The notes under the pieces were generated by a model. It saw nothing but the letters and a program-made list of their open reading frames with translations, was not told the origin of the DNA and did not search any database. A stretch of 64,000 nt of DNA, from positions 48,670,001-48,734,000 of the forward strand of contig CM114271.1 in the NCBI GenBank assembly GCA_050084515.1, given 5' to 3'. The translations under genes and the position numbers were made by a program. Shown here one piece after another: positions 1,548 to 61,846 of the stretch (position 1 is its first letter; every line of letters begins with the position of its first letter). Origin of the DNA: Blasia pusilla (lineage: Eukaryota).

Positions 1548-2688
1548 CATCGGACTTCGTCTGCCGATTGATGGGTCGGTAATCTCCACACATCCGCCTA
1601 TCCGTCCAGTTGCCATGCACATCCTTCTTGGCGGGCATGACTATGTCAGATGCATACTCCCCATGCGACATCTCCACTAGTCTTGCTCCGACCAAGTCCT
1701 GGCTCCTACTCGGAATTAGTGCCCTCTCCATATCACTATACCTGTAGGGTCGTCGGAAGATCGGCGTATCACTCAACAACTCAATGCAGATCCTCGGTCC
1801 CTTTGGCGTACCCAAATCCTCCATTCTAAACGCAAAGCAGCTCCTATAAACCAGAGGAACTCATATATTCGGCGCCGCTCTCCTCCTATCAACTTAGGGC
1901 CCATATCTGGCTTCCAAGTCTCCATCGTGACTACGGTAGGACTCTCCTGCGCGGATATTGGTTGTTGCTATGGTGCAACCCCATTTCGAACAACGACACT
2001 CGACCGCTCTCCTGCAACCAAGTGCAAACTCTGATCTCCTCCACCTACCGTGCCCGGAACCACGCTCGATGTTGTGGCTATTCACACAATAATTCGGGAA
2101 AACATAGGTGTAACTGCGCCACATGTCGTACTAAGACACGCCTTGCAACATCATCACTCTCCACATACAGGTACTCCTACACTCGCACTCCTGCCTGCAA
2201 AACATCCGCTAACCCTACTCCAACCAAGTCGAGGCTTCTACTCTGAATCAGATCCCTCTCCATATCATTGTACTTCTGAGGTCGTCGGAAGATCGGAGTA
2301 TTACTTGACAACTCAATGCGGATCCCCGGTCCCTTCAGCGTACCCAAATCCTCCATACTAAACACAAAGCAACTCCTATAACTCCTGAGGAACTGATGTA
2401 TCCGGCGCCGCTCTCCTCCTATCAACTTAGGGCCCATATCTGGCTCCCAAGTCTCCATCGTGACTACCGTAGGACTCTCCGGCGCGGGTATTGGTGGTTG
2501 CTATGGTGCAACCCCATCTCAAACAACAACACTTGGCCGCTCTTCTGCAGCCAACTGCAAACTCTGATCTCCTCCACGTGTAATGTCTGAAACCATGCTC
2601 GATGCTGTGGCTATCATCTCTTAGCGTACCTCCAAAACATCCCAAGAAGTCCAAGGGTGTCTCTCCCAATCTCCCCTCGAGTGTAGGT

Positions 2689-5034: not shown

Positions 5035-7049
5035 TAGGTCTCCTCGGGTCTAGCCCCCAACCACTGCCTCCACCGTCTCAGTAGGCATGGGGCTCACCCA
5101 GGCAACCGCTGTGATCTATCTCGTCGGCGTTGGGCTCCACCAACCGCTGAACCTGGTCATCCCAAACCAAGCCAAGACTGGCCTTCTTGAACTCACAAAC
5201 GTGGGCAAGGCTGCCCGCGGCTTGCCTACCCTGTTGACCATAGTCAACGGTGGTTGATCATCGTGCCTCACTGCCTGTGATCGACGACCTGGATCCAGAA
5301 TGGAATCCACTAACAAATTGGAGGGGCGCTCCACTCTTGCATACGCCCTCCGTAACACCGCATGGGGTACCAAGTTGGTCCACCATAGACGTGGGCAATG
5401 GGCTCTAGAACCTACACTCGTCGCATCTAAGAACACTGCTGGGCCAATCCAGGCACGCACCTGATGAGCACTCGTCACCACATGTGACCTGGAGTCTCCT
5501 AAGATCGGCACATTCTCCAGAATGTAGGTTGGAGAATGAGAGTGATGCTCCTCCAACTGCCATAAGACCCTCAACATCTCCCAAAACAACCTAGACTGAG
5601 TGTCAGCCAACCCGCTGCCTCGTCCAGCACTCGATTGGCCCTGACATGGCCAATCGGAAATGACCAAATCATTGGTCCCTACCCGCTCTAAGTCCTACGC
5701 CCCCAACAACAAAATATCCCTTGGTAGGGAGCTCTAATACCCTGTACCGCGGACGCAGACAATAAGTCCGGAAAATGTAGGCGTAAATCCGCCACATGTC
5801 GTAGTGAGACGCGACTCACAACATCATCACTCTCCACATACTTGCGAGTACTGCTATACTCGCACTTATGCCTGCAAAACAATAGCTAACCGGGTGCTAA
5901 TCCCTCCAAAGAGATCTAACACTTGAATACCCTCCTCCGGGGTACACCACACAATGGGTGTGGTATCCAAGGGTGTCATCGTAGCACTCCCTGCTACATC
6001 GGGTTCCTCAGACCCGTCACACTTTGGTGCAAACGCCTCGCTCTACGCGGTCTACACGTGCTCATCCGCCAATCGTCGAAGCTCCTTAGTCAAGCCCCAC
6101 ATTGGCACCTCTCCTCCACAGAATGATGCGGCTACCATAACACTCCTCTCCATAGAATGTCAAGAATGGGAGTATCCTCTACATGGACATGTCCCTCAAT
6201 CAAATCACTAGGCCAAGTGATGGCACTGCTAAATGCTGCTAAGGTCGCCATCTCTCCTGGCTGTTGCTCGATCACTACATATGTGAATCGAACGGGTAAT
6301 GAGCTAAGGCGCCCATCACATGACTGCCATCCTGGTTTGTAGGACGCTGACTCCTCCCAGTAATCCAGCGCAAACCCCATTGGGAAAAACACTACTCCAC
6401 CAACCAAGACGTCGTAGGACTCTACATCAATCACTATCGCCTTGGCTCGTACCACGGACTCATCTGTAGGATGTCCTGGGCGAATCCTCACCATGACCTC
6501 ATGTCGGGTGATTTACTCGCTCCACCCAAGGATGTTTGTATCCGGAATGGACAACGCTCCACATCGGCTCTCGTCAAGCCCAATCCTCTGAATGACGCTT
6601 TCCCCAACATCAAGTGTTGCGCTCTTGAATCCAACAAGATACATTGCGGACTAAAAGCTCTACCTCAGGACTCACCAACTGGAAGACATCTCCTCAATTA
6701 TCCAGCAACACAACACCAAGAGAAGCCATGGCAAGCTCTATCGCAGGTCTAGCGGGCATCTCCGCCATCCTAGCAGCGGCAACCTGCCATGAATCTGACG
6801 TGGACCACCCAAGCATCCGCTCCAAGGGCAGGTCCATTACCTCCTCTTCAATCACCTCTGAACGTGATGCAGGAACTCCAACTCCATGCTCACATAGCAT
6901 AGCGACCAGCCAAAAAGCCTCGCGGGCGTACCCCCTAATGTCATAACATCGGAAGCACAAAATAAAGGAGCGCGGTACACAATGGTGGCCATTTCTCCAA
7001 GAGCTCACGATGCAAGTGACCCCTCCTAAAAAGTCACTAGTGGAAGAGG

Positions 7050-15500: not shown

Positions 15501-18500
15501 TCCAGTCATGGTACGCGATGCTGGACCGGACCCTGCAGACACGGGTGTGGAAGGGGGTGCTTCATATGAACACCTCCCCAACATTGAGAGATGTTTTTAG
15601 GAGTGTCGAGAACATTGAGCGCAACATGGCGGAGGAGAGCGTAGCCACCATGGGTTCTGGGCGAGAGCAGTCGCGATTGTATGCACCACCTATGTAGCAA
15701 TGTGGACTCCGAGATAGGTCGACTGTGGCACCACAAGCTCAGGGAGGATACCACATATGCGAGAGTGGAGCGCCCCTCCAATTTGTTAGTGGATTCCATT
15801 CTGGATCCAGGTCGTCAATCACAAGCAGTAAGGCACGATGATCGACCACCATTGACTGTGGTCAACATGGTAGGCAGGCCACGGGCAGCCTTGCCCATGT
15901 TTGTGAGTTTTCCCACTTCCTATGCATACAAGGAGGTTGGTCTTGGCTTGGTTTGGGATGACCAGGTTCAGCGGTTTGTGGAGCCCAACGCCGATGAGAA
16001 GAGCGAGCAATGGGATTTCCCAAAGGAGTGACGGCAGTATCGTTAGTGTCAGAGGCATCACGACGCCATGTCTTGGGTCAGGCGATGGACATGAACTGCT
16101 TGACATGGATCCTCAGCTTGGGAGCGGCAGAGCAGCGCCGTATGAGATCACGATAGATCACAGCGGTTGCGTTGGTGAGCCCCATGCCTACCGAGATGGT
16201 GGAGGCAGTGGCTAGGGGCGAGACCCGAGGAGATCTACACACCAGGGGAGATCGAGAGAGACACCCTTGGACTTCTTGGGATGTTTTGCAGGTACGCAAG
16301 GAGATGATAGCCACAGCATCGAGCGTCGTTCCGGGCATTGCACGTGGAGGAGATCAGAGGTTGCAGTTGGCTGCAGGAGATCACCCGAGTTTTGTTGTTC
16401 GAGAAGGGGTTGCACCATAGCAACCATCGATACTAGCGCCGGAGAGTCCTACGGTAGTCACGATGGAGACTTGGGAGCCAAATATGGGCCCTAAGTTGAC
16501 AAGAGGAGAGCAGCGTTGGATACATCAGTTCCTCATGAGTTGTAGGAGCTCCTTTGTGTTTAGCATGGAGGATTTGGGTACGCTAAAGGGACCGGGGATC
16601 CGCTTTGAGTTGTCGAGTGATACGCCAATCTTCCGAAGATCCTATAGGTGGAGTGATATGGAAAGGGCTCTGATTCAGAGTAGGAGCCAGAAATTGGTCG
16701 GAGCATGACTAATGGAGATGTTGCATGGGGGAGTATGCATGTGCCACTATCATGCCCGCCAAGATGGATCTGCATGGCAACTGGACGGGTTGGCAGATGT
16801 GTGGGGATTACCGACCTATCAATCGGCAGACGAAGTCCGATAGGTATGCCATGCCCACCACTGAGGAGATCTTTGATGCGATTCTTCACCCAAAGGTCTT
16901 CAGTTCATTGGATTTGTGAGCCGGATACCATCAGCTGCCTATCAGATTGGAGGACAGGCAGAAGACGACATTTTGGGGCATCGATCCTCACGAGAAGGAT
17001 TATTTGTACTAGTGGCGGTTCTTACCATTTGGGTTAAAGAATGCCTCGGCGGAGTTTCAGAGGGTCATGGATAGGATCTTGGCTGGTCTTGATTTTGCTA
17101 GGTGTTAAATTGATGACATCGCAGTCTTTAGCGCCACGGTTGAGGAGCATGAGCGACATCTAGAGGATGTGTTTTGACGATTGCAATTACATGGGCTGAA
17201 GCTACATCTTGGCAAGTGCAAGTTCTTCTACGACCATATTGAATACTTGGGTCATACGATATACTCAGGGGACCTTGGTGTTCAGCAGACGAAGGTAAAG
17301 GCTATCTCACGCATTTCACGCCCTACACATATGAGCCGTGTTCGCACATTCATGGGATTGGCAAACTTCTATCAGCAGTACGTCAAGGGATTCAGTTTGA
17401 TTGCAAAGCCGCTAACCTTGTTGGCCAAGGTGGATCACGAGTGGCACTGGGGGGATGAGCTAGAGTGAGCATTTTAGTTGCTCAAGGACAAGTTGACGAT
17501 TGCGCCCATCTTGAGGAGACCGATCAAGGGGCGTCCTTTCCAGTTGAACACAGATTGGAGCATCTTGGGGCTTGGAGCAATGCTCACCCAGCATGATGAT
17601 GAGGGTTGAGAGTTCGTGGTGGCTTATGCTAGCCGCTCGGATAACGCTGCAAAGGCGAAGTACAGCTTGTATGAGGGTGAGTGTTTGGTTGCGGTGTGGG
17701 TTGTCGCGCTTTTCAAGTGTTACTTATTCTACAACCCCTTTACTATCATCACTGATCATCAACCACTTAAGTGGTTGATGGAGTCCGACAAACTTACTAA
17801 GAAGCTTAAGAGATGGGCTCTGTTGTTGCAGGAGTATGATTTTCAGGTGGTACATAGACCTGGGATGCTCAACCAAGATGCAAATGGGTTGAGTGGTAAC
17901 CCATGCCCAAGTCAGCGAGATGCGATTGGAGCTCGATGGCATGGAGAGAGTGATGAGGAGTTAGTATCAGGATGAAAAGCGTCAGCCTATTTAGGCATGT
18001 TGGCTATGGAGAGCCAAAGTGTGGAGACTTTGATGGCGAGGTCTAGTGGAGAGTCCTTGGATCCCAAGGCCAGTGAGGAGACGACAGGTGGCTAAGATAT
18101 TCATGATGATGGAGTACTCTTGGAGTACTTTCGTACTCGCAGCGTTGCGAGCACCGTGGGTGCTAGAGAGCGGGATCGGATCCTACAGCGGGCCAGACGA
18201 TTCCGTTGGGAGGGGGGCACATGTTTTGAGGGTTTGAGAGGATGGCAGAGTACGCGTAGTGTTGCATCCTTTGCAGAGAGCATGACTAGTGTAGCATGCC
18301 CACGAGGAGTTGGGTCACTTTGGGATGAAGCGAACGTATAACTTGCTCCAGATTTAGTATTGGTGGCGAGGCATGCAGACTGACGTTCACCAATTTTTTG
18401 TCAGGTGCATGGTGTGCGATCGGGTCCGAGCATCATTCAATGCTCCGACTCCAGAGTTGCATCCATTACCAATCATGGGCTTAGGAGATAGATGGAGTTT

Positions 18501-20214: not shown

Positions 20215-21605
20215 TCGAGTCTTTTTGTTTGAGATAGGATTGCACCATAGCAACCGCAGATATCCTCGCCAAAGAGTCTTACAATAGTCACGATGGAGAC
20301 TTGGGAGCTAGATATGACTCATATGAGCCCTTAGTTGACAGGAGGAGATTAGCGTCGGACACATTAGTGCCTTGGAAGTCGTAGGAGTTCCTTTGCATTT
20401 AGTATCTATGATTTAGGTAGGTTGAAGGATATCCGCATTGAGTTGTCTAGCAATATGATGATCTTCTGATGACCCTACAGGTATAGTGATATGGAGAGAC
20501 CTCTAATTTAGAGTAGGAGCCAAGACTTGGCTGAAGCAAGACTAGTGGAGATGTTGCATGGACAATATGCACGTGTTAATTTCATGCCCGCCAAAAAGGA
20601 TGTGTATGGCAACTGGACGGATAAGCATATGTGTGGAGACTACCAACCTATCAATCATCAAACCAAGTTCGATAGGTATGCTATGCCCCCTCCAAAGGAG
20701 ATCTTTGATGTTATTAGACATACCAAGTCTTTAGTTTGTTGGATCTCCAAGGCAAATACTATAAGTTGCCTACTAGATTTGGAGGACAAGTAGAAGATGA
20801 CATTTTAGGGCATCGATCCTCATAGAAAGGATTGTTTGTACCATTGGAGGTTTTTACAATTTGGATTAAAGAATGCATGGGAAAAGTTTTAGAGGGCCAT
20901 GGATAGGATCTTGGCACGTCTGGATTTTAAGAGGTGTTACATTGATAACTTTGATAATTACAGTTACATGGGTTGAAGCTACATCTAGGTAAGTGCAAGT
21001 TCTTCTACAACCAGATTGAGTACTTGGGTTATACGATATACCTAGTTGACCTTGGTGTTCAGTAGACAAAAGTAGAGGCTATCTCACGCGTTCCATGCCC
21101 TATAGATGTGAGTCGAGTCCATGCATTCATGAGATTGGTGAACTTCTATTGATGGTACATCAAGGGTTTTAGTTTTGTAGGTGCGCAACACTATCCCAAG
21201 GAGGATATATGTATACTAGATCTCTTTGGAGGGATTAGTATAGCGTTGGCTGCACTGTTGCAGGTCGGAGTAAGAGTACAATAGTACTTGCATGTGGAGA
21301 GGGCTGAGACTACACGTAGAGTCTTATTACATCACGTGTCAAGACTAGTCGAGTTGTATCCTCAGTTATTGCCATTGTTTGCAGTCACGGGATATCAACA
21401 TGTACTTCCGATCGATATTTTATTGTTGGGGGCATCAGATCTTGATAGGATTGGTTAGATACACTTGGTGGTGGCAGGGTGGCCATGTTTTGGGAGATAT
21501 TGCGAGTTCTTCAACATTGGCAGACTACCCAACGATGTTCTCCAGCCTACATTTTGGAGAATATCCCATTGTTAGGTGACACTCAAGCCTGAGTGATGGC
21601 GAGTG
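20215..21605 (+). mobile_element. Highly decayed MTase-Gypsy fragments (RT, then MTase motifs I-VI)
   Basis: MCGDYQPIN (20527-20793); LDLFGGIS near 21217; VVAGWPC near 21467; YILENIP near 21548. Confidence 0.75.
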
Positions 21606-23500
21606 TACATAAAAATCTTGTTGTATCCTTTGTCTCCATTACCAACATGTATCTCTAGTCCAAACGAGCATGTATGGTTTTCTTCCTCCCCACAGAATCC
21701 AATTAGAACGTCTTGCTTAGATATCGATTCCCACCTGAAAAACCAATTATCATATGTACGCTCATTAGGCATGTAGGAATAAACCACATATATTTCCATT
21801 CCATGAATGTGGAAAGAAATGATTATGAATGCAATATTCCAAATAGCAATGATCCCCAACTTGGCTCTAGGTTTAATTCGCGTTTCGTCTTCTGCCAAAA
21901 CCACATGCACATCCCCTTGAATCCCAATTTTAGCCTTGGCAGCAGTATATATTCTTGCTATCTCTGAGAATATTTTAAGCCTTACACCCGCTCGGAAAGG
22001 AACCAACTTTGCTCTTTCCCGAGTCAATGTCCTCAATCTTGGACCACATAGGTTCATAGCCATCAAACGGAATACTGGTCTACCTCCATACGGCAACAAT
22101 GTTGGACTTATGGCTTTTGTTCCCCTCTTAAATCAAAATCCCCTCTCTTTACAATTTAGGTTCTTCCCCAAATCAGTCATGAAATCCCACAATGTTGATT
22201 TACCTTAGAAGGCATTTCTCTTCCAGGCTGTAATAATTTTTTGACGGAAAGCAAGGATGTCTCTCCTGTTTGTCAGCTCATACAACATGACATTCAAGAT
22301 TGTATTTCTCGTATTTAAGGCACACAATTTCCAATGAAGACCAAATACATCCTAGCTTTCCTGCCTACGAGCTTTAAGTGTTGCTCTAGTAACATCTCTT
22401 AGCTTTGGGGAAGTCGAATACTCCAATTGTATCTTGGATAGAGTATCCCTACTTCCACATTTGTGTATTGATTTCACACTTCTGCCCACTCTCATTTTAA
22501 AATCATTCATTTTAGGGATGCTAAAACATTGCTCACAACACACATCCTTAAAACCCCCTCATAGGGTGGTGTTATATGCACACTTTCTATGTCTGAAGAT
22601 CCCATCAATTTGAACCTTCTCTTGACTAGTATGGTTATAAACAAGCCAATGTACATGCGGCTCGTAAATCCACTTACTCCCATGTATTTGATCATTCACT
22701 AAAGGCTTCACATTAACATAGACTCCATTGTAACTTGTTGTTTTAAACCCAAATCCCCAACAAACCAAAGACAAGTGGGACTCTACCTCATCATTCTCAC
22801 CTTCTTCACTCTCCCCTCCAATGAATTTGTGGATGGTCCTCTGCCTTTTATTATCTGGTGCATTTGCCTTGGCGGGTCTCCCTGGCCTAGATATCCTCAA
22901 AGCAACAAGTGCCATATTCAGAGACCCTTGAATATTCTTCCCATCCTGATAGGAAGATAAATGCCCTTGTAAGTTACTTTCTAAGTTATTTTGACTTGAC
23001 ACCAACTGGAACTTGCAACCACAATAAACACATCTCACCCTAAACTTCTATGGTTCTAAACTTACATCCTTGGTATCCCCCTCTATTTCAAATGGATTCC
23101 TATCACTAGCGCAATGCTCATTAAGCTTATAGACAATCATACAGCCATAATCAATGGTTGCTCGAGAATTCATAACAAAGGTGTCTTCTCTCCTCCATGG
23201 TGTAATCCTCCAACATAATTTCCTCACTCTACACCAATTTTTATGGTGTTTCTTAGTTTTCACATATTTAGCTCTATGATTCAAGAAGGGTTTGATAATA
23301 CAACTCTTTGATATTGTTCCTTCTACAGTCCCTACCTTCCATTGGCAATCTATACACTCAAGCCAACCTTGAGGAAGATCCCCCTCATCCCATGTCAACA
23401 CTCTCCATCTATGATCTTCCCAACCAAATTTTTTAGCCCAAGTATCAAGCTTCACAATTTTTGATTTCTAGATCTCCAATATTTCACGAGACATGAGAGA
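21606..23500 (-). pseudogene. Decayed DNA-transposase-like gene, possibly P/THAP9-like
   Basis: Removing a GT-AG intron at 21735-21860 gives VVLAEDETRIKPRAKWESISKQDVLIGFCG, similar by eye to the first catalytic-Asp block of P-like transposases; Cys/His-rich fragments lie upstream; many stops. Confidence 0.4.
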
Positions 23501-28594: not shown

Positions 28595-28700
28595 TGTCGT
28601 GCGAATCCACATCGTCATACAACATACATCGATGACATACCATACTCACATACATACATAACATAGACAAGAGCATACACAAACACAAGTGTACCACAAC
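28595..28700 (-). repeat. Terminal repeat A, outer copy
   Basis: Near-identical to 29071-29176 (tgtcgtgcgaatccacatcg...gtgtaccacaac). Confidence 0.95.
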
Positions 28701-29068
28701 TGAAATCCGTGAAAGACCTACAGTCATAAAACACGTATAGAATCACATACAATCGAGCCAAATCCACTCCACGATGGGAGAATCCAAGTCAAAGCTTGCA
28801 GGAACCACCATAGCCAAGAGCTCTACTCACTACCAAGGCTAACTCCCAACACAACAGGCTCAACTCAAAGAACTAACTGTTCTTTGAGTGCACTCCATAC
28901 TATATCCTCCAACCTAAGAGCGGGTCCTACTGGAAAAGTCACCCTCAACTGAGTAACCCCCAACCCTATGTATGAAACCGCATCTCTACCTAGACACTAC
29001 GGCCCTACATAAGGTATGGCCTCTATTAGCACACTATACTCTACAACGTAATCCGTATGGTCATGACT
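28701..29068 (-). repeat. Terminal repeat B, 3' copy
   Basis: Collinear with 38202-38569; differences are mostly transitions. Confidence 0.95.
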
Positions 29069-29070
29069 GC

Positions 29071-29176
29071 TGTCGTGCGAATCCACATCGTCATACAATA
29101 TACATCGCTGACATATCATACTCACATACATACATAACATAGACAAGAGCATACACAAACACAAGTGTACCACAAC
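29071..29176 (-). repeat. Terminal repeat A, inner copy, preceded in element sense by a polypurine tract
   Basis: Duplicate of 28595-28700; the minus strand reads AGGGGGGTGA immediately before it (about 29177-29186). Confidence 0.92.
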
Positions 29177-29349
29177 TCACCCCCCTAACTGGCAGTTAGG
29201 TCCCTCTAACTCCCAGGTAGCCCTATACATCTACTACATGCTATACACCTTCTTGGATGTACGAATCAGAAGGCCGGGTGCTAGGTTGCCCCATCGTTAG
29301 TCGCATATCTGTAATCCATATCACGCAAAGATTAAGTCATCTACCTCTC

Positions 29350-30550
29350 CTAAGTACATCGAGGACAAACCCACCTTCCAGTAGGAACAACATCCATACG
29401 TGGAGTCAAACATATCATGTGCCAACCCCTAGAACACCGATCACACACCAACATACGGGTTGCGTTACCAGCAGACCCACACAACATGCACCTCAAGCTA
29501 GCACGTATCATGGCTAAGCTTGGGTCAACAGTACCATCCAGATTTGGAAGATGACATGGCGCACAATTACGCACATGGGCCTTCCAAACAACTCCATCAC
29601 AACCCTCCAACATGAGAACTCCAAAAGCTAGCACCTCGCGCACTCATAAAATAGTGCGGCCCGCCGTCACATCCAACGTTGTCGGTGCAATCTGCTGCAA
29701 ATAGACATAGTCCCTCACATGGAACCTACGAATCAATGGTCGATAACCTCTACCCCGAATGGTTGCATACCGCAACGTATCCCTATGTTGAGCCATGGCA
29801 AGATTCTCAAAGGCTGTTGGCATAACTCTCCGAAAGAAATCTGCCCGCTGAGAACACACTCTCATCCACATCTCTGGGTCATCAAGGTTCACCACCTCAC
29901 TAGACTCCCGACGAATTGCTGCTGGCAAGTCTGGATCTCGGCCGTATAACAGAAAATAAGGTGAGAAGGAAGCCAAGGATGCTTGGCGACTGAACCTATA
30001 CCCCATGGCTAGCCATAGCAACTGAATATCCCCGTCTCCAAGATGCCCCTTCTGTAGGCTATACTTGCGCAATGCCCTCTTCACCGTCTGAACCACACGC
30101 TCAGCCAAACCATCCGCCTCTGGATGATCTCGAGACGTGGTCCGATGATCAATCAACGCCTTGTCACACAAGACTTGAAACTTACCCTGAAACTTTGTAC
30201 CCTGGTCGGTCAGTACTTCAGCAAGTGCACCAAAATGACTAAGCACTCTATCAAGAAACGCATACGCCGTTCTCTCACTTGCCTTGTCAGGTAATGCCAC
30301 CATCTCAATCCACTTGGAGAAGTGCTCCACCATCACCAACACATATCGATGATGTCGTACAGTCAACGGTAACGGTCCCGCAAAGTCCCCACTCCAACGA
30401 TAATCCAACCCCATAATAGGCAAGGGGTGTAACTATGGTGTAGGGGCATTGAATGATGCCCTCACCCGGTCACAAACCATACAACGTGACACCAACTGTT
30501 GCACCTGAGTATGCATGCCACGCCACCAATACTAACCAAGGAGCAAGCTA
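29350..30550 (-). pseudogene. DDE integrase with C-terminal PHD finger
   Basis: DFAGPLP, LTDQG, GLAERVV (29644-30423); CMLCG..LVCDRCSRGWHMICL..WVCPRC (29350-29643). Confidence 0.92.
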
Positions 30551-30759
30551 TTCCTACGGACCAGTAGGGTGCCAGACATAGTGAATGGCAAGGAGCTAGA
30601 CCGTGTTCTTCAACGTGCTAAGAGGTATCGATTGGAGGGAACACATATTCTCCGTGTGTGGGAGGATGGTAGAGTACGAGTAGTGTTGCATTTGGCTCAG
30701 AGAGAGCGCATTGTGCGACATGCCCATAAAGAGTTGGGACATTTTGGGGTAAAGCGCAT

Positions 30760-32640
30760 CATCATGAATATCACGCTGATCCGTACAACCATCTCCAACC
30801 TTAGGATCTGAAGGCTGGCCATCTACCCTCTGACAAGAGTAAGATGTCAAGTGGTCCTCCATACTAGAGTCCACCCCTAACCAACATAAAAAGGCGGATG
30901 CATGCCAACCTCGCACCATCTCCTCATCAACCTCGCCATGCCATCTGGCCCCAGTTGCATCCTCTTGGCTAGTACATGGGTTCCTACTCAACCCATCATC
31001 ATCAAGGTTGGCAACTTCAGGTCCATGTACCATCTGGAAGTCATACTCCTGTAAGATAAGAGCCCACCGTGCAAGCTTCCTTGTAAGCTTGCAGACTCCA
31101 TCAACCACTTGAGCGGCTGATGATCAGTAACAAGGGTAAACTGTGTGCCAAACAAGTAACACCTAAAGTGTGCCACCGCCCACACTACTGCCAAGCACTC
31201 TCCCTTATATGAACTAAAGCGCAACTCCGTTGCATTATTCGAACGACTTGCATAGGCCACCACAAACTCCATGTGCTCATCATCATGTTGTGTCAACACC
31301 GCTCCAAGTCCCAACGTACTCCAATCAGTGTGTAACTGAAATGGGCGCCCTCTGATAGGTATCCTCAATATAGGCGCCGCCACCAACTAGGCCTTGAGCT
31401 CCACAAAAGCTCTCTCCTGATCATCTCCCAAGTGCTACTCTTGATATGATTTCAGAAATTGGTTCAAAGCCTTTGCCATAGCACTAAATCCCTTCACATA
31501 CCTCCGATAGTAGTTCGCCAATCTCATGAATGCCCGAACTCTACTCACATATACCGGACGCGGAATAAGTGCAATAGCCTCCACCTTTGCTTGCTGAACT
31601 CCCAAACCACCGGGATAGATCACATGACCCAAGTACTCAAAATCCTCATGGAAGAACTTACACTTTCCTCGATGCAAACGTAGACCATGAGCTTTCAACC
31701 GCTCAAACACAATCTGCAAATGTATCTGATGCTCCTCCACCGTGTTACTGAACACCAAGATATCATCAATGTAACACCGAAAAAAATCCAACCCTGCTAG
31801 GATCCTGTCCATCACTCTCTGAAACTCGGCATGTGCATTCTTCAACCCAAAGGGTAAGAACTTACACTTTCTTGGATGCAAACGTAGACCATGAGCTTTC
31901 AACCGCTCAAACACAATCTGCAAATGTATCTGATGCTCCTCCACCGTGTTACTGAACACCAAGATATCATCAATGTAACACCGAACAAAATCCAACCCTG
32001 CTACGATACTGTCCATCACTCTCTGAAACTTGGCATGTGCATTCTTCAACCCAAAGGGTAAGAATTTCCACTTGTACAAACAATCCTTGCCATGAGAGTT
32101 GACACCCCAAAATGTTGTGTTGGCCTTGTCCCTCTCTCGAATCGGCAATTGATGGTATCCTGCCTAAAGATCCAAAGTACTGAAAATATTTGCGTGTCCC
32201 ACCACATGTATAGGCATGGCATACTTATCGGCCTTGGTTTGCCGATTGATAGGACGGTAATCTCCACACATCCGCCTATCCGTGTAGTTGCCATGCATAT
32301 AATTTTTAGCAGGCATGACAGTGGCTGGTGCATACTCTCTATGCGATAACTCCACTAATCCAGCCTCCAAAAGGTCCAACGTCCTACTCTGAATCAGGTC
32401 CCTCTCCATATCACTATATCGGTAGGGACAACGGAAGATTGGCGTATCACTAGCCAAATCAATCCGTATACCGGGTCCAACCAGAGCACCCAACTCCTTC
32501 ATGCTAAAGGCAAAACAACTCCTATAAGCACGTAGGAATTGTGTCAAGCGTCGTTTCTCACCTCCCGTAAGCTTGGGCCCAAGTAATGGCTCCCAAGTCT
32601 CCTCCACTGGCGCACTAGAGGGAGAGGACGATGCCATTGG
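30760..32640 (-). pseudogene. Reverse transcriptase and RNase H
   Basis: RMCGDYRPIN, STLDL, LPFGLKNA, CYIDD (twice), HTDWSTLGLGAVL, TDHQPLKWL. Confidence 0.95.
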
Positions 32641-32899
32641 CTGCTACGTAACCCCCTCACAAGATGGTACACCCTTAGCTACACCATCATCTGAGCAAAT
32701 AACTCCTCCACCAGCATGAGCAACCAACTCCACATGCCCAGCCATTACATCCCATTTACTCCAAGGATGCAAAATACTACTCTCCTCGCCCCCAACCGAT
32801 GCCTGTACGGTCCTGGTAGGCATGGAGCTCATTACAAGGGATGGAAGACCCACAGACATAGTCCGAAGTCGACGCGGCTTGGCCATACCAAGACTCAAA

Positions 32900-33830
32900 A
32901 TCCAAGTCAAACAATTCAGATCCATGGCCTGACCCAACACATGACGTCGTGAAGCCTCAAAAATGGAAACAACCGTTGTCACACCAGTAGCAAATCCCAT
33001 CGCACGCTCTCTCTCATCAGCATTAGGCTCCACCAACTGTCGCACATGAGAATCCCATACAAGCCCGGGACCACCTTCCCTGTAGGCATGTGACGAGGGA
33101 AAACTCACAAATGTGGGTAGTGCCATCCTAGGCTGGCCCACACGGTTCACCACTGCCATGGGTGACCAATCAATAACCCTCACCACTTGAGAAAGTCGCC
33201 AAGATCAAGATACTATCCATCAGAAGGCAAGGATCATTGACGGCATCATATGCTCGATGTAGAACCTCCCTAGGCAACAAGTTTTTCCACCACAAGCGTG
33301 GACGATGTGCACGGGAGCCAACTCGCGCTGCATCCAACAACACCGCTGGTCCAATCCAAGACCACACCTCATGAACACTCGCCATCATCCGGGTCCAAGT
33401 GTCACCCAACAATGGAACATTCTCCAGAATGTAAGCTGGAGCACGTGCTTGATGAACCTGAATATGTCGTAACATCTCCCAAAACAATCGAGACCTAGGG
33501 TCGTGTAATCCCTCACCACGACCAGCACGTGTATGACCCTGACATGGCCATCCAGCAATCACCAAATCCACAGGACCAACCCTCTCAAGGTCCTACGCCC
33601 CCAACAATGCAATGTGTGACGGCAAAGCATGCTGGTACTCACGAACAGCTGATGGCGGAAACAACTCAGGATATCTCCGCATCAACTGACCGATATGTCA
33701 GGATGAGACTCTCTGGACCGTCTCATCTCACTCCACATACATGTATCTCCGCACAGGAATACCGGTCTGCAACACTGCAACCAAACCAATGCTAATCCCA
33801 CCAAAGAGATCTAACACACAAATGCCCTCC
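32900..33830 (-). pseudogene. DNMT3-like C5 cytosine methyltransferase domain inside pol
   Basis: Motif I VLDLFGGISIG..YVE; motif IV DLVIAGWPCQG; motif VI YILENV; motif VIII RAHRPRLWW; motif IX ERERAMGF; motif X RRHVLGQAM; canonical order. Confidence 0.92.
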
Positions 33831-34234
33831 GTCGGATACTGCCATACAATGGGTTTAGTATCCAAAGGGGATAACCCAACTAGACGAGAAGTAGGAGTTC
33901 GCCATGGGGCATCCTCTTCCTCGTGAGATATAATAGCCTCACACCAAGCCTCCTGCACTAGGCGATCAGCCTCCTGCCGTAGTGCACCGCCTGAACTCCA
34001 AAGTGGCACATCCAACAATGAGGATGCCACTGCTGCAAAACTAGGGACCTCCTCTACCTCCTCATGCACAGGAGAATCCATAGCAAAAACATTACCCTCC
34101 AAAAAGTCTCCTGGCCAAGTGACTATTCCACTAAAACTAGCCACAGATGCTAACACCGTTGGGGAAGACCCTCCTGGTCGAGCCCCATAAATAAATCTCA
34201 CAGGAACTTGGCTCATACGTCCATCCCCGGACTG

Positions 34235-34726
34235 TCAACCAGGTCTATAAGACACTGTCTCAGTCCAGTAATCCATCTGAAAACCCATCGGGTACAATAC
34301 TACTCCTCCAACTAGTACATCATACGACTTGGCTGATATGACCATTGCAGGTACTCCCAACCGGGAGCTATCAGTCGCATGATGTGGTCTCAACTGTACA
34401 GAAAACTTCTCCCGTGTCATGAATTGAGACCTATCATTGGCTCCTCCAAGTGATGTTTGAATCTGGAATGGGTAAGGCTCAAGCTCTAACATCCGAATAC
34501 CCAAACCAATACATGCCGCCTTTCCCAACATCAAAGGTTGGGCACCAGAGTCTAACAAGACTCTATCTGGTCTATACACCTGTCTTGTAGGACTCACCAA
34601 TCGGAATATTCCACTTTGGTTGTCCAACATACATACACCAGGTGTAAGCCTCTCACGATCAATGGCTTGCCAGGCTGGTAATGCATCCATCTTCGCCGCC
34701 GCCGCCAAGTAGCAAGTGGTACTCAA
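34235..34726 (-). pseudogene. Retropepsin aspartic protease
   Basis: VLLDSGAQ active-site motif and YDVLVGG. Confidence 0.85.
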
Positions 34727-35419
34727 TGCTACACCGACATAGAGGGTCGCTCCACCGCAACACCCTCATCCACCTCAAAGACGTAGCGATAATACCCCAC
34801 GTTCACACAACGTGGCTGCTAGCTGAAATACAGGAGCTAAGTCAACTCCTAAAGCCATCAGTTCCATGGCCGAAAACAATGGGGATCCCAACACTGAAGT
34901 TGTCATCCGCAATACTGCACTGGATGTTGCATCTGTGTCTACTACACGCGATGTAGATGCCTCAGTCCCCACTGTCACCTCAATAGGCTGCGTAGGAACC
35001 ATGGATGGAGTCCTAAGCACCTTAGACAACAAGAATGACTGGGGAAGCCTAGCCTGCCTCCCAGCCTCACCCCTCTGTGGGTCCAAATCTACAGTAGCAC
35101 CACGTGGCTTTGACGCTTGAGTGGCTCCTCTCGTAACTGCAGCTGATGCCTCAACCTGTGCTGCACTCGCCATATAAGAGAGATCATCCCCTCCATAAGA
35201 GGTGGAAGCCCTTGCTTCCGAACCTGATCTGTGTTGGATACCAGCCATAGTAGCCAACTTTTGCTCCAACTGCTCAATCCTGGCAGCCATAGCTGACTCT
35301 GTCGTAGTCGTAGGGGTAGCCACAGTAGGCTCTCCAACCACTGATCCACCTCTACCATCCCTACCACCTCTACCACCTCAGCCTCTCAGAGCTACTCCAC
35401 CACGGCCGCGGCCTGATCT

Positions 35420-36700
35420 CAACTCTGGATGAAGATCAAAGCAACGCTCTCGAGGAGGACCTGGTCTCCCGCAATGATCACACTGAGTTGGGGCCGACTG
35501 AGGCCCATCCTCCAAAGTCCGTCTCCCATCCTCTTGGGGATAAAACTTCCTAACATGATCACCTCCACATGTCCAACACGACTGTTCTTGCTGCGGGCCG
35601 GTGCAGCAAAGGAAGGCAATGGTCTCTGCGCAAGTGTCCCTCTAGGACCTGACTGAGGTCGTGTGTACCCCCCATGACTCCCACTACTACTACCACCACC
35701 ACTACTACGAGACTGTGAGGTGGGCTACTGAACACGAGAAGTAGTAGTTGTATCCCTACTGAATGCGGATGTCACCACTCTCTCCTTCACCATGTTAAGC
35801 TCAATCTTTTTAGATAGAGCAAACACATGGGTCAATGTGGGTGAATCATCACTCATAAGAGTAGCATCACGTACCCTACGGTGCAACTCTCTGTCCAAGA
35901 TCCTATACTAAAACTGGACTGCCTAAGCCTCAGTCACACCCTAGGTAACTGAAATCAAGCGTCGCATACAAGTGTATGCCTCACGAAGACTCTCACCAGT
36001 CTTTCGCTCAAATTCCTGAAGACTTCTCAACTTCTCTGTCTTCACTCCCTGATAGTTCTTCTTCAACATCTTGAAGAACTCTGCAACCGGGCTAAACGAT
36101 GGTGGGGCACTAGTACCCCCATTGGTACCTCCATCGATACCTCCACTGGTACCCCCACTCCGGCTCGTACTCGTACCACTCAACGTCGGGCTGGCTGGCA
36201 TAGTAGGAGCACTACTACCAATACCACCATAGGTGATAGACACATAGCCTGGAGACCAATATTGTCTCCACGCCTCAATCTCAGCAATATGGTCCTTCCT
36301 AAACTCATGGTAATCTTCCATGGGTGGTCCCTCCAAGTGCTGAAACAACCCCTTCCAAGCCAAGAAGGGTGTAAACAACGTGGCGTTCCGCAACATCTGC
36401 ATATCACACCACGTATCAAACTCCTACATGAAGTCCTCCAACTCAATGGTGCCCACTCCACCCGAGTATCGTCGTGGGCCCTTCATGGCCCCATATATCC
36501 CATCCATGTCCCAAATCAATGGAGCTGCAACACTCGATAACAACGTAGAAGACTCGGTGTTTGGAACATCCTCGTCCTCCTCTTCATCAACCGTCGGAAG
36601 TGGAAAAGGTAGCCGATACCTAAATCCACTCCGTGTGAAACCACCACTATCCGCACCACGGTCCCCAACCAGACCACCCGACAGCTCCGTGATGACCAAC
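35420..36700 (-). pseudogene. Gag-like ORF with two degenerate zinc knuckles
   Basis: LQEFERKTGESLREAY (retrotransposon gag-like); CWTCGGDH and CDHCGR..ERC read on the minus strand at about 35440-35580. Confidence 0.75.
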
Positions 36701-37258
36701 GCCGATGCCGCACCACCACTAAATTACCACCACTAAGTAACCAAGTGACGTCGATGTCGCTGTACTATTCTAGCTCTAATAGCTATGGATGTAGGCAACC
36801 TAACCTGTCAGCACCACAAGAAGCCTCCCACGGTCTACTCGTCATCACTCCACCCTCACTACCGGTAGCACACAGGAGTAACACTACTCTGGAAATCAGC
36901 GTCAACCCTAACAATGGGCGCGCAAGCAAGAAGCAACGATGGAGGGGATCCAAACACAGGAAGTCCAACGACAACCCTCCAATCAAAAATGGGAATCAAG
37001 GTAACACAATCCACCAAACGTGGCGCCCCCTGAATCCACAGAACCCATCCCATTAGTCTAACGCAATAGCTACTCCGCCACAGGTCGATGACGTGCTAGT
37101 CGGACTCACAGCACTTGAAAATATGAACTGTATGGAGAAGCTACACCATACTATGCGCTAGAGGTCCATCAACCAAAAAAATTGAGATGCATAAAGTGCC
37201 TAACACATCTCCGAACAACACCAAATGAGCTACACCACTGTGTACACTGGCATAGTTA

Positions 37259-37311
37259 AGAACTCAGCAGTTAAGCGTCTTCCAGGCAGAATAGCCTAAA
37301 GATGGGTGACC
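37259..37311 (+). promoter_or_regulatory. 5S rRNA internal-control-region-like segment (A box, IE, C box), antisense within the element 5' leader
   Basis: AGAACTCAGCAGTTAAGCGT...GATGGGTGACC aligns without gaps to the plant 5S core as recalled from memory (about 39/53 by hand); A-to-C box spacing is preserved. Confidence 0.7.
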
Positions 37312-38201
37312 AGTTATACAACACGCAAATCACAAATCCTACAAAAATTGCCTCACGCCCAAGCAAGCAAGCTTGCTTTCTTGCTCCTTGCTCCTTGCTC
37401 CGCCTCTCACGCCCACTCGCCCCGAGCTACCACGAGTTGCCTCGAAGCCTCAAAATGCTCGAGATATGCCCTGTTCGCCATGCTTTGCTATGGAGAGAGG
37501 CCCAACCAGGGCGCCCCCAATGGGATAGGCGTCTCCAACAACCAACAAGTCACCAACCAACCAACCCCTCCGATCCGTTGTCCACCATAGCCAGACCTTG
37601 AGCTAGTCCGCAAAATTTCTATCAACAATTACTCCACAAATACTCAACCAAAATTGAATCTATTTTGAAAAATTCAATTGACCACCATAGCTATCTCTCC
37701 CCAAAAAATCAGCTACAACTGAGCTCCGTACTCTGAGTTAAAAATCATACAAACTTGTTGTCCATACACCTCAAGAATCGTAAATCCGACCGCGCTTCCG
37801 CCCAGATTCATGCACGCAGAAATCCGCAATGCTCCACACACTCAAGCAGATAGCTTCACATAAGATCACAATACAAGTAGCAACAGGAACCTCTCACCCG
37901 ATTTGGATGAACTTCAACACAGCTTCCGCACTCCAAGCTCTCCATATCAGAAAACCGTCGAACACGAACCAGAATCTTCAATCCTTGATAACTTCCAAAT
38001 CCCTTGACGAAATCCGGCGATCTAAAGCGCGTTGGAAAGCTCTCAGCAAGGCGCTTCTTTCCCAATCAATCACGCACCAAATTCCTACCTCCAACATAGG
38101 CCACAAGCCACGAACATCCACGGCTGAGTACACAATCAGCCCTAACCAGATCCTACTGATCCACAATCGAAGCTACCATCCATCTACTCTAGTTCTTTGA
38201 G

Positions 38202-38569
38202 TGAAATCCATGAAAGACCTATTGTCATAAAACATGTATAGAATCACATAAAATTGAGCCAAACCCACTCCACGATGGGAGAATCCAAGTCGAAGCTTGC
38301 GGGAACCACCATAGCCAAGAGCTCTACTCACTACCAAGGCTAACTCCCAACGCAACAGGCTCAACTCAAAGAACTAATTGTTCTTTGAGTGCACTCCATA
38401 CTATATCCTCCAACCTAAGAGCGGGCCCTACTGGAAAAGTCACCCTCAACAAAGTAACCCCCAACCCTATGTATGAAACCGCATCTCTATCTAGACACTA
38501 CGGCCCTACATAAGGTATGGCCTCTACTAGCACACTATACTCTACGACATAATCCATATGGTCATGACA
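38202..38569 (-). repeat. Terminal repeat B, 5' copy (promoter-bearing, LTR-like unit)
   Basis: Element sense TGTCATGACC...GGATTTCA; TATA-like GATATAG at about 38401-38407; internal hairpin 38364-38390. Confidence 0.93.
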
Positions 38570-56896: not shown

Positions 56897-57439
56897 TGTC
56901 TATGTCAAGTCACAATCGAGAACCTAACCCTAAACTAGAACAGATACAAGTTCACTACCTTGAACTAAAGAAACATGCGGCCAGGAGACCAAAGGCAACA
57001 AGTAGAGTTGTGGCCTAAAGGCAACCCCTTCTTCTTACAATGATAATAAGTGCAAAAAGAGAACGGCCCTAAACTCTGCTCATGCGAAAAAAAAACTCAA
57101 ATCCGGCTCATGCAAGACTGCAAGTGCACAAATCAGCACTATGCAATCTCGGTTGCTGCTGGAAGATAGTAGTGTAAACCAAGCTGTTGACTAAATACGC
57201 TGAACATTCAAACTCGGTACGAAAGCAACTAAGGCAAGGAAAACCAGCAAACAATGGAGGCCTTGAAGGGAAATGATTCACCCGAGCTATGGGTTTATAA
57301 GCCAAGAACAATACAAAGAAGAATAGAAGAAGACATGAACAAGAGAAGTTCCCAAGAACTATAGCGGCTCTGCAATGTAGACCCCGGGGCGGATTGAAAC
57401 TATGACAGTCCGCGGGCAAGAATATGATGTGAGCCGGGA

Positions 57440-59738: not shown

Positions 59739-60408
59739 ATACCAGGATGGTAGTGAGGGGATGGGCGACTTAGCTCATTACTCATTTGATTCACGAGTGG
59801 AGTGATTGAGCAAGATCAAAAGAGGTGGCAACTTTGGCAACATTAAGTAGCACCATCACTTGGCATGAGGATTTGATAGAAAGGCATGCCCATATAGAGG
59901 ACATACCCATGAACAAAACCCCTATGGAGAGGAGTTTTATGGTAGCAACATCATTCCACGGAGGAGAGATGCCTTGGCGGGGTTCAAGTGAGAAGCTTCA
60001 ACGCTTAGCCAATGAGCATGTGGAGATGGCGTGGAGTGAGATGTTTGCACTAGATCATGATGGGTCAGTGAATCTTGAGGTAGCAAGGAGTGCTTGGATA
60101 TCTCCCTTAGACAAGTTAGACACCACGTCGATTATGTATTGCATCCTAAAGGAGGGTATTAGAGTGTTGGATCTCTTTGGAGGGATCAATATTCAGTGGC
60201 TGTTGTTTTGAAAAAAAAATATTTATTAGCATATGACGCATGATGAAGTTGTAAGAAATCTCACTCTAACACTTGGGATAGTTCCGCCTTTGTTTTCCCA
60301 ACTTCTTACTTGCCTTGACCATACAATGTTACTATAATTCCTTACCGAGAAACATTTCCTCGATGGGGATGTAGGACTTGTATTGGATTGGGACCATTCT
60401 TTGGTCAT

Positions 60409-60967
60409 TGTCACACGCATACACATTGCTAGTCACATCTACACACCACACAACATCGGTCTTCCCAATAAATAGATTTATCCATCCATAAAGTATGCAC
60501 GGAGTGCGCGAGGAGCGTGTTTGGGCGAGGGGCCTTGGCCCCGCACATCAATTTTACATTTTACACGCATATACATCGATACCACACAAGAAAATCATTG
60601 TGAAAGTGACTCATATAGCTAATTTCACTTTTGAATTACCATCGACATATCAAGCCGTATCCATCCTTTGCTATGAGGGAATCCAGACGCTAACACCCTA
60701 GTTCCTACTACACACAAAGCAAGAGAGGTGCTCCTAAGGCCCAATATGAGAAGGTGGCTTGGGAAAGCCATCTCTTCCCCTCTAATAGCCTTGGGAAGAC
60801 TAACTAAGACCAAAATAGAGAAATATTCATAAATTTTTTCCCGACACAACGGGCCTGTCGCCAACCTTATCCAACATCTCAAGATGAAGTTATGCTTAAA
60901 CAACCCACTGATCCTCTATATTGTTGACGCGATAGAACTCCACTTGTCGGCTAACAAAGATGTGACA
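60409..60967 (-). mobile_element. Solo B+A unit inserted in MTase motif IV
   Basis: TGTCAC...GATGTGACA; 4-bp TSD TCAT (60405-60408, 60968-60971); homologous to 52050-52677. Confidence 0.85.
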
Positions 60968-61065
60968 TCATTGCAAGTTAGCCATGCTAGGGCTGGTTGA
61001 GTGGTGGATCAGATGATGGTTTTGCTGACTATCCCAGCCTCTATTTAAAAAATACGAAGTATACT

Positions 61066-61120
61066 TGGGAGAGGCAGGATTCGAACCTACGTAGAAAACC
61101 TTCAGCAGATTTACAGTCTG
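61066..61120 (-). pseudogene. trnY: 3' 55 nt of a mitochondrial-type tRNA-Tyr(GTA), probable NUMT
   Basis: CAGACTGTAAATCTGCTGAAGGTTTTCTACGTAGGTTCGAATCCTGCCTCTCCCA: anticodon arm GTA, long variable arm, T arm, acceptor 3' strand; 5' part is absent. Confidence 0.8.
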
Positions 61121-61846
61121 AGGTTATTTGGGAGATGATGATGATCTTGTGGCACTTGCAAGAAGATAAATGCGTTCTCCAATTATATTCTAGAGAATGT
61201 ACTATTTTTGGGTGATTTTATATCACGAGTGATGACGATTGCACATCAAATTTGTGCATGGATCGACCAATCATCATGCCTCATTACCTTTGATTGACAT
61301 TGAGGATCCAAAATGGAATCCACGAAAAACTAGGAGAGATCCTACGACGACAACAGTATATAAGATACGTATGCCACAAGATTTTTTTATTTTTTTTGAG
61401 TTTTCTTGCTTCCTATGCATATAAGAAGTCCGGTGGGAGGACCACATATACTTATTTATGGAGCCCAATGTTGATGAGAGAGAGAGAGTGGATGATGGGG
61501 TTTCCCATATGAGTAACGGAAGTAACATTACTATTAGAGGTGTTTCAATGTCATGTCTTGGGCTAGGTGATTGACTAGCTTGAATTTCTTGATATGGAAT
61601 CTCAACTTAGGAGTAGCTGAGCAGCATCGGTTGTGGTTGCACCAAGTCTCTACTGCACTTGTCAGCCCCTTGCCTACCAAGACGGTTGAGATAGTGGTTA
61701 GGTCGAGATTTGAGGAGATCAAAAATTTAGAGGTGAATGGGAGAAACATCCTTGGACTTCTTGGGATGTGTTGTAGGTACACTGAGAGATGAGAGCCACA
61801 TTAGCAAGCGTGGTTCACAATTTGCATTAAGGAGCATTAGGAGGTG

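Follow-up and report, generated by a model that had tools for sequence, protein, structure and literature searches.

A DNMT3-type cytosine methyltransferase domain in a decayed Ty3/gypsy-type retrotransposon family of the liverwort Blasia pusilla

The window analysed here is a stretch of 64,000 nucleotides (nt) from the liverwort Blasia pusilla (contig CM114271.1, positions 48,670,001 to 48,734,000 of the forward strand), and all coordinates are counted from its first letter. Its main feature is a decayed retrotransposon of the Ty3/gypsy type, referred to as the primary element or primary copy, in which a DNMT3-type C5 cytosine methyltransferase (DNMT) domain lies between the aspartic protease (PR) and the reverse transcriptase (RT), in the same open reading frame (ORF) as gag and PR. 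RNase H (RH) and integrase (IN) follow RT. Relatives from metagenome contigs carry the prefix L, and these are the best 80 of 407 such relatives. The parts of the primary element, with the basis of each assignment, are as follows:

28595..38568, minus strand: whole primary element, 9974 nt, in the order A1, leader, ORF1 (gag-CCHC-PR-DNMT), UAG, ORF2 (RT-RH-IN-PHD), G-rich tract, B1, A2, B2 (repeats and domains)
38202..38568, minus strand: A1, the 5' terminal repeat, 367 nt (repeat comparison)
35941..36507, minus strand: N-terminal part of gag, which begins with MDGIYG at 36507 and is interrupted in frame by a stop at 36424-36426 (frames)
35378..35641, minus strand: CCHC zinc knuckle, with CWTCGG at 35561-35578 (frames; the relative P0021 matches zf-CCHC)
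34235..34765, minus strand: aspartic protease region, with LLDSGAQ at 34538-34558 (frames)
33854..34234, minus strand: linker between PR and DNMT (conserved in relatives, without known family)
32863..33853, minus strand: DNMT3-type C5 cytosine methyltransferase domain, motifs I-X (tblastn, Pfam, PDB and fold comparison)
32647..32862, minus strand: C-terminal tail of ORF1 after DNMT (frames, relatives)
32638..32646, minus strand: conserved in-frame stop and its context UAG CAG CCA, a candidate leaky stop (frame comparison)
31435..32643, minus strand: reverse transcriptase, RVT_1 E 2e-41, with YIDDIL at 31960-31977 and a stop at 32164-32166 (Pfam)
30988..31386, minus strand: RNase H, RT_RNaseH E 6.4e-30 (Pfam)
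29644..30432, minus strand: integrase core, rve E 1.9e-13 (Pfam)
29350..29643, minus strand: PHD finger at the integrase C-terminus, PF00628 E 3e-11 (Pfam)
29180..29186, minus strand: G-rich polypurine-like run AGGGGGG, directly upstream of B1 (sequence)
29071..29177, minus strand: B1 repeat, 107 nt, with three differences from B2 (repeat comparison)
28701..29067, minus strand: A2 repeat (repeat comparison)
28595..28701, minus strand: B2 repeat, the 3' end of the element, ending ...GACA (repeat comparison)

Stops and frameshifts interrupt the gag, DNMT, RT and RNase H parts of the primary copy, whose CpG observed/expected ratio is 0.61 with an excess of TpG. The MDGIYG start agrees with the start of the Marchantia ORF1 proteins. 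In the window itself Pfam gives no match on gag, on the protease, on the motif I and C-terminal pieces of DNMT or on the N-terminal RT piece, and it leaves the decayed CCHC piece unscored; the assignments of these pieces come from relatives. Asp_protease_2, for example, matches the relatives P0021 and L027 and not the window piece. The linker between PR and DNMT has mostly low confidence in a fold model, except for one helix. The PHD finger occupies the integrase C-terminal place that is taken by the chromodomain in chromoviruses, and the same fusion of integrase and PHD is common to a sister clade in which DNMT lies between RNase H and integrase (see below). Two rearrangements are seen downstream of DNMT in the primary copy: a 204-nt tandem duplication in RT (31652-32059, 97% identical) that doubles the YIDDIL active-site stretch, and an inversion that places the H2C2 zinc part of the integrase on the plus strand (about 30552-30754).

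The DNMT domain was delimited by tblastn with an intact Marchantia domain as the query, which aligns at positions 2-336 of 336 with 70-79% identity to 32863-33853 on the minus strand. The original prediction, made from the letters alone, had placed a DNMT3-like domain at 32900-33830, between protease and RT. The domain is present and is flanked by the protease DSG and the RT YIDDIL as proposed, and the predicted limits were slightly narrow. In the primary copy the domain is interrupted by three in-frame stops and, near 33190-33200, by one frameshift. PF00145, the profile on which the prediction had been staked, matches a piece of 140 amino acids (aa) at 33170-33592 (minus strand) with E 4.8e-10 and 39.8 bits against a curated cut-off of 22, and it matches a 355-aa read-through translation of 33170-34234 (minus strand, stops written as X) with E 2e-9; the strength of the match is far beyond chance. 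Motifs I (ICVLDLFGGISIGL), IV (AGWPCQGH), VI (YILENVP) and VIII (SRAHRPRLWW) succeed one another in the read-through translation, at residues 141, 228, 270 and 308, and motifs IX and X (EPNADERERAMGF and LGQAMDLN) lie in the neighboring frame (ORF 32644..33204). All six of the motifs that had been read off inside pol are found in sequence in the translated frames. The catalytic Cys of PCQ, the ENV, the RxR and the motif I residues are still present in the decayed primary copy.

DNMT3A is the best match of the domain in the Protein Data Bank (PDB), in agreement with the DNMT3-like nature originally proposed. A phmmer search with the primary copy, which finds 43 distinct PDB sequences at E <= 0.01, ranks DNMT3A first (5.5e-9), with DNMT3B (2e-7), DRM (4e-4) and HaeIII (9e-4) below it and DNMT3C and HhaI also among the matches. 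A profile of 40 family sequences gives DNMT3A at 8e-24, DNMT3C at 6e-22 and DNMT3B at 1e-20, with tobacco DRM (3e-13), DRM2 (1e-9), HhaI (8e-9) and DNMT2 (9e-4) at lower ranks; DNMT1 and chromomethylase (CMT) are absent from the 54 PDB sequences that this profile matches at E <= 0.001. The AlphaFold2 (AF2) model of the relative from Calypogeia has a predicted local distance difference test score (pLDDT) mostly above 90 across residues 300-640, and in Foldseek every top match of the model is a catalytic domain of DNMT3A/B/C (E about 5e-16, template modeling (TM) score 0.78-0.83, target-normalised), with an identity to DNMT3A of just 22-24% in the structural alignment. In the alignment of the 40 relatives, which are 28-65% identical to its first sequence, F321/G323 (motif I), C408-Q409 (PCQ), E451-N452 (ENV), R491/R493 (RxR) and E589-R592 are invariant or at least 90% conserved. 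In the intact relative L027, the Pfam content of ORF1 is protease and DNA methylase only, PF00145 scoring 51.1 bits.

Two other assignments of the enzyme were rejected. The motifs, which are permuted in DRM, are un-permuted in the element domain, and a DRM-type enzyme is ruled out because of this. A bacterial or phage methylase is ruled out as well, falling 15 orders of magnitude below DNMT3 in the ranking of PDB matches by the family profile.

An in-frame stop lies at the same codon of the DNMT-RT border in all six copies of the window. The stops were located by protein frames; blastn recovered the border in just one other copy. They are:

32646, minus strand: border stop, TAG CAG CCA
16418, plus strand: border stop, TAG CAA CCA
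2503, minus strand: border stop, TAG CAA CCA
1970, minus strand: border stop, TAG CAA CAA
20248, plus strand: border stop, TAG CAA CCG
62508, plus strand: border stop, TAA TAA CCA

In Marchantia, two annotated proteins (1278 and 1248 aa) span the region from the gag start to exactly this border stop. Among the 31 loci that are at least 55% identical to the Marchantia domain, TAR-CAR-YYN is the first stop after the domain in 17, always 75 codons past the end of the aligned DNMT segment and with RT in frame after it in 14 of the 17; the other 14 loci have earlier stops or frame breaks. At 45-55% identity, two of three loci have TAR-CAR-YYN as the first stop, both with RT in frame. The metagenome copy L027 has both frames open: an ORF1 of 1369 aa, containing protease and PF00145 by Pfam, is followed by a single UAG CAG UUA (stop at 5083) and then by an ORF2 of 1047 aa containing RT, RNase H, H2C2, rve and PHD. 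Intact ORFs, for which a search had been suggested with the original prediction, are represented by this copy, and 15 relatives are annotated in Marchantia.

In intact relatives DNMT is the last domain of ORF1, which has the order Gag-zinc knuckle-PR-linker-DNMT. Since the conserved in-frame stop separates DNMT from RT, DNMT belongs to the frame of Gag and PR, and RT-IN would need read-through. DNMT would be translated together with Gag and protease, and RT and integrase would be made by read-through alone. The type I read-through signal of tobamoviruses is given as UAG-CAR-YYA in Firth and Brierley 2012 (PMC3542737), and the element border likewise has UAG followed by CAA or CAG and a pyrimidine pair; the exact signal is present in three of the six window copies and also in L027 and L028. 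The stop of the element falls between DNMT and RT, and not between gag and pol. Among the loci L035-L080, which are less than 45% identical to the Marchantia domain, other first stops recur at fixed offsets behind DNMT: six loci have TAG TTG GAT, or a near variant of it, at +80 (or +74), four have TAG/TAA CTC ACC at +112, and four have TAG CTT CTG at +66 or +69. They may represent additional leaky stops, or else damage inherited from a common ancestor.

Five further DNMT pieces lie in the window, one of them missing from the original prediction:

5191..5961, minus strand: second DNMT copy, domain positions 1-256, with six stops (tblastn)
15753..16147, plus strand: third copy, the C-terminal third of DNMT only, positions 205-336 (tblastn)
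21189..21613, plus strand: fourth copy, the N-terminal half of DNMT only, positions 6-166, with three stops (tblastn)
2087..2233, minus strand: small motif I fragment, positions 15-66, not in the original prediction (tblastn)
60150..61633, plus strand: most decayed and most divergent copy (tblastn, motif I remnant)

The second copy is 55% identical to the Marchantia domain and is separated from its RT by an insertion, which is bracketed by a 474-nt inverted repeat (2689-3162 and 4561-5034, 98% identical). The third copy has lost PR and the N-terminal part of DNMT and runs on into RT-RH-IN-PHD up to 19468, and the fourth has rearranged surroundings, an RT piece standing immediately before it. 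The last copy has a motif I remnant at about 60150-60211 and weak C-terminal pieces at 61108-61633 (E 8e-5 and 1e-4). Compared with one another or with the Marchantia domain, the six pieces are 30-80% identical. The copies expected at about 5116-5930, 15755-16150, 21190-21600 and 60150-61570 each yield tblastn pieces, and the view that all copies of the window are pseudogenised agrees with the state of the six pieces. Between window copies the dN/dS of DNMT is 0.17-0.20, beside 0.14-0.27 for the N-terminal part of RT and 0.10 for IN in pairs with the primary copy, values that are rough because dS is saturated. DNMT has a pN of 0.26-0.40 against a pS of 0.66-0.74, which shows that constraint acted on the domain during the divergence of the subfamilies. 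Neutral evolution, which had been named as an outcome contrary to the prediction, does not fit dN/dS values like those of RT and IN.

The family is not limited to this window. A word-index search of longer proteins lists 22 matches at E <= 1e-10, consisting of 15 annotated 'hypothetical proteins' of Marchantia polymorpha, one protein each from Calypogeia fissa and Sphagnum fallax, and five unnamed proteins; the word-index searches scored 8000 candidates, and Klebsormidium is not named among the 22 and 73 matches that they list. An exhaustive search of cluster representatives finds 3047 proteins at E <= 1e-3 and 528 at E <= 1e-10, and a scan of metagenome contigs yields 598 pattern-matched stretches, 407 of which encode a relative. 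A protein atlas has only generic PF00145 clusters, one of them streptophyte. In all 80 of the metagenome loci DNMT adjoins PR and/or RT-RH-IN-PHD. Among stored proteins there are 132 near-full domains, 108 beside PR, RT, RH, IN or PHD and 24 without a detected neighbor. Together with the six pieces of the window, these support the earlier claim that the domain is a family trait and not a one-off capture. The annotated PF00145 'genes' of Marchantia (e.g. Mp_4g09160) should be read as transposon ORFs, and not as host methyltransferases.

Two architectures are present among the relatives. The domain follows the protease or precedes RT, as in the primary element, in 36 of the 132 proteins; in 72 it lies between RNase H and integrase, and 57 of these 72, in four layouts with PHD as the last domain, have a C-terminal PHD finger. 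The layout changes a single time on the DNMT tree, with SH-like support of 100 (FastTree, 134 rows, unrooted), and one branch splits the two layouts with an SH-aLRT of 98 in an IQ-TREE run on a random subset of 18 + 24 + 2 rows; three long-branch rows were listed for exclusion from that run, and none was drawn into the 44 rows. The sister clade, with the order RT-RH-DNMT-IN-PHD, has a homologous DNMT (33-42% identity) and the same integrase-PHD fusion, and unlike the primary element it carries DNMT between RNase H and integrase instead of between PR and RT. Its members come from metagenomes, with a partial match in the chlorophyte Monoraphidium neglectum. Taxon look-ups of metagenome relatives give Calypogeia fissa, M. 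neglectum and one Spirochaetia metagenome-assembled genome (MAG) record, which is taken for a mis-binned eukaryotic contig.

The termini of the element are split direct repeats, A1...B1-A2-B2, instead of two equal long terminal repeats (LTRs). A1 and A2 differ at 19 of 367 positions (94.8% identity), and 16 of the differences are transitions; the A repeat begins ...TGTCATGACC and the B repeat ends ...GACA. The same layout recurs in L034 (1676-2017, 10238-10805) and L040 (7056-7399, 15702-16270). L022 has B1 and B2 at matching spacing and its 5' end off the contig, and L003 has A1 and A2 on a contig that stops before B2. This layout equals a two-LTR circle opened at the B/A joint. Canonical Ty3/gypsy elements have two identical flanking LTRs and a target duplication of 4-6 nt, and in DIRS-like elements a tyrosine recombinase replaces the DDE integrase. 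The present element is not of the canonical LTR form, its 5' end being A alone and its 3' end B-A-B, and no abutting target duplication of 4-6 nt was found in any of the three complete copies (the window element, L034 and L040). Unlike DIRS-like elements, it codes for an rve integrase core together with an H2C2 zinc domain, and a tyrosine recombinase is absent from the Pfam matches in both long frames of L027. In the three complete copies, imperfect direct duplications of 9-14 nt are seen beyond the element ends, at distances of 5-15 nt from A1 and 3-11 nt from B2, and they may be due to chance in AT-rich flanks.

RNA reads from the family are present in three RNA-seq runs of one study, which carry the same species label as the best DNA read set. 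The runs have 1841, 1598 and 1916 reads on the element, and since 98-99% of these are just 95-99% alike, they stem from sister copies. Read depth over the DNMT bins is 3-44. First mates are almost all on the plus strand, which in most stranded libraries means minus-strand RNA. In each run 10-27 reads join 29822 to 30811 with nine other letters between, and these joints are transcripts of a sister copy without about 1 kb of the integrase region. The RNA reads of sister copies also switch strand at both edges of the inverted H2C2 segment (30552-30754).

Two further features of the window are not part of the family. A host gene exon at 45825-46604 (minus strand) encodes an hnRNP F/H-type RRM protein that is 99% identical over its full length to Marchantia polymorpha MPTK1_6g00920, with next-best matches at 75-77%, an identity that points to M. 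polymorpha or a very close relative as the host; the land-plant host that had been supposed from the letters is borne out by this gene. It is enclosed by nested transposons. Adjoining frames of 356 and 414 aa at 54610-56899 (minus strand) combine a zinc finger of the C17orf113 type with DUF4371 and a weak match to the hAT dimerisation domain; they are a transposase related to hAT, or a gene that descends from such a transposase.

It is almost certain that the domain is a DNMT3-type C5 methyltransferase domain of a Ty3/gypsy-type family and that it is a trait of the family. As an explanation of the whole we favor, with a confidence somewhat better than even, a decayed liverwort Ty3/gypsy-type element whose ORF1-coded DNMT3 domain would write methylation on element cDNA or on integration-site DNA. 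Intact members are probably catalytically active, and the assignment of the element's own DNA as the main substrate of the enzyme is more tentative, falling somewhat short of an even bet. In such a cycle every ribosome would make Gag-PR-DNMT, and the read-through fraction alone would make RT and integrase. The protease would release the methyltransferase in or near the virus-like particle, where the enzyme may methylate cytosines of fresh element cDNA, or it may act on DNA at the integration site. New copies would arrive in the genome already with the host heterochromatin mark, and the PHD finger of the integrase may read histone tails and so choose the site. We infer the read-through, the processing, the activity, the substrate and the benefit to the element.

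Several observations weigh against this explanation. None of the six DNMT pieces of the window is intact, and the locus itself is uninformative; the dS of DNMT between its copies exceeds 1.5. Reads at least 99% alike number 26, 9 and 8 per run, so that the primary copy may be silent, and the RNA of the element is most likely sense by the usual library convention. Exact agreement with the tobamovirus signal is limited to the three window copies and two loci given above; the tobamovirus hexamer ends in A, and that of the 17 close loci ends in C or T (CAA-CCC or CAA-CCT). The TAR-CAR-YYN context is found in none of the 37 loci below 45% identity. The label 'DNMT3-type' is one of similarity ranking and predicted fold, not of phylogeny, and Pfam does not find the PWWP or ADD reader of host DNMT3 in L027 ORF1 or P0021. 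KnitGypsy-Dnmt3, the Klebsormidium nitens element described in de Mendoza 2018 (PMC5890265), gave no methylation in yeast, a result that its authors call inconclusive.

The same yeast result is in keeping with an enzyme that is active on RNA and not on DNA, in the manner of DNMT2, and that places 5-methylcytosine (m5C) on the genomic RNA of the element or on its primer tRNA. That ORF1 encodes the domain together with Gag, so that it would be produced in the same amount as an RNA-packaging protein, points the same way, and RNA methylation is raised by the authors for the LINE-borne SymbioLINE-Dnmt (PMC5890265). DNMT3, a DNA enzyme, nevertheless ranks far above DNMT2 (8e-24 vs 9e-4), all top Foldseek matches are DNMT3, and an RNA substrate seems quite unlikely. 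The enzyme may also act in trans on host chromatin, with the PHD-integrase marking the surroundings of the insertion or other loci, so that heterochromatin is built or spread where the family persists, or the host methylome is disturbed. The fusion of PHD to integrase, seen in the 57 of 72 proteins of the sister layout and in many metagenome loci, and the window itself, a nest of at least six family copies, are consistent with such a role, and effects on the host epigenome are discussed in de Mendoza 2018 (PMC5890265). Such nesting may, however, just reflect poor purging from repeat-rich regions, and we regard action in trans as unlikely.

The domain may instead be a catalytically dead or non-enzymatic module, a DNA- or SAM-binding (S-adenosylmethionine-binding) scaffold retained because of a structural role in the particle. 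The conservation of the PCQ Cys, ENV, RxR and motif I in the 40 relatives (invariant or at least 90%) and their presence even in the decayed copy make this very unlikely. A last alternative is that a single copy captured a DNMT3 exon of the host just once, or that the domain stems from a chimeric assembly or from contaminating bacteria. Six pieces are present in this window, 15 Marchantia proteins and two other bryophyte genera carry relatives, as do 407 of the 598 metagenome stretches, the domain lies beside retroelement domains throughout the metagenome loci, and RNA reads fall on sister copies. The probability of such an origin is negligible, and it is refuted by copy number, relatives, consistent position and RNA reads.

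With DNA methyltransferases borne by transposons the usual picture would be inverted, the silencing mark being written by the element that it should silence. A bolder version, which we consider rather improbable, is that of an old bryophyte-wide and probably green-algal lineage combining split repeats with a DDE integrase, a PHD reader and a DNMT3 writer at Gag stoichiometry before a leaky UAG, with an enzyme active in living Marchantia that pre-methylates the cDNA of its element. Such an enzyme could even add measurably to the de novo methylation of the host, and the liverwort methylome would then be in part transposon-written. As a genetic model, Marchantia polymorpha offers good methylomes and mutants for each of its host methyltransferases. 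Its family members are diverse and partly intact as annotated ORFs, and relatives are transcribed, which makes activity, substrate and beneficiary directly testable. The placement in ORF1 before a conserved stop and the single switch in domain position are concrete experimental handles.

Among known enzymes, host DNMT3A/3B/3C, plant DNMT3 and DRM2 share the catalytic fold with the element domain, and the best matches in both sequence and structure are DNMT3. Motifs I-X have the same order in DNMT3 and in the element domain, which differs from host DNMT3A/3B/3C in being without PWWP and ADD by Pfam and in being embedded in Gag-PR.

Retrotransposons with a DNMT had been named as a precedent in the original prediction, and the Symbiodinium and Klebsormidium cases are indeed described in de Mendoza 2018 (PMC5890265). 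In SymbioDIRS-Dnmt3 of Symbiodinium, the DNMT domains of both tested copies methylate CG de novo in yeast, and self-methylation of cDNA has been proposed for this element (PMC5890265). SymbioDIRS-Dnmt3 and SymbioLINE-Dnmt are, like the present family, retrotransposon-borne cytosine methyltransferases under purifying selection; they belong to other classes (DIRS with a tyrosine recombinase, and LINE) and another host kingdom, and are independent acquisitions according to the authors. Arthropod Copia elements with a captured methyl-CpG-binding domain, as described in de Mendoza 2019 (PMC6673714), also took up a part of host DNA methylation; what they carry is a reader instead of a writer, and both their superfamily and their host are different.

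No methyltransferase-bearing retrotransposon of Marchantia or any bryophyte is named in the searched literature, where Klebsormidium is the sole plant-lineage case; the supplements of PMC5890265 and PMC12344493 may list such elements. The placement in ORF1 before a conserved UAG, the split repeats together with an integrase, the PHD fusion and the layout of the sister clade were not found in the same literature.

KnitGypsy-Dnmt3 is the closest in kind. Its published description (PMC5890265) is that of an intronless, un-rearranged DNMT3-type domain in the polyprotein of an LTR Gypsy element, which keeps the key catalytic residues, has a Ka/Ks below 0.2 between copies and is viewed as an acquisition 'in the K. 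nitens lineage' with few copies. The family reported here is of the same kind, having a DNMT3-type domain in a polyprotein of Gypsy content (gag-CCHC-PR-DNMT-RT-RH-IN), and its rough dN/dS of 0.17-0.20 between window copies stands beside the Ka/Ks below 0.2 of KnitGypsy-Dnmt3. The legend to Fig. 4 of the same paper gives KnitGypsy-Dnmt3 a DIRS-like repeat layout with Gypsy domains, which fits the A1...B1-A2-B2 arrangement as far as a comparison with one sentence of a legend goes. The host of KnitGypsy-Dnmt3 is a charophyte; the present family is found in a liverwort and has kin in Calypogeia and Sphagnum. The two elements are compared here by description. The present finding adds to the KnitGypsy-Dnmt3 kind, now in a land plant, and is not a new kind.

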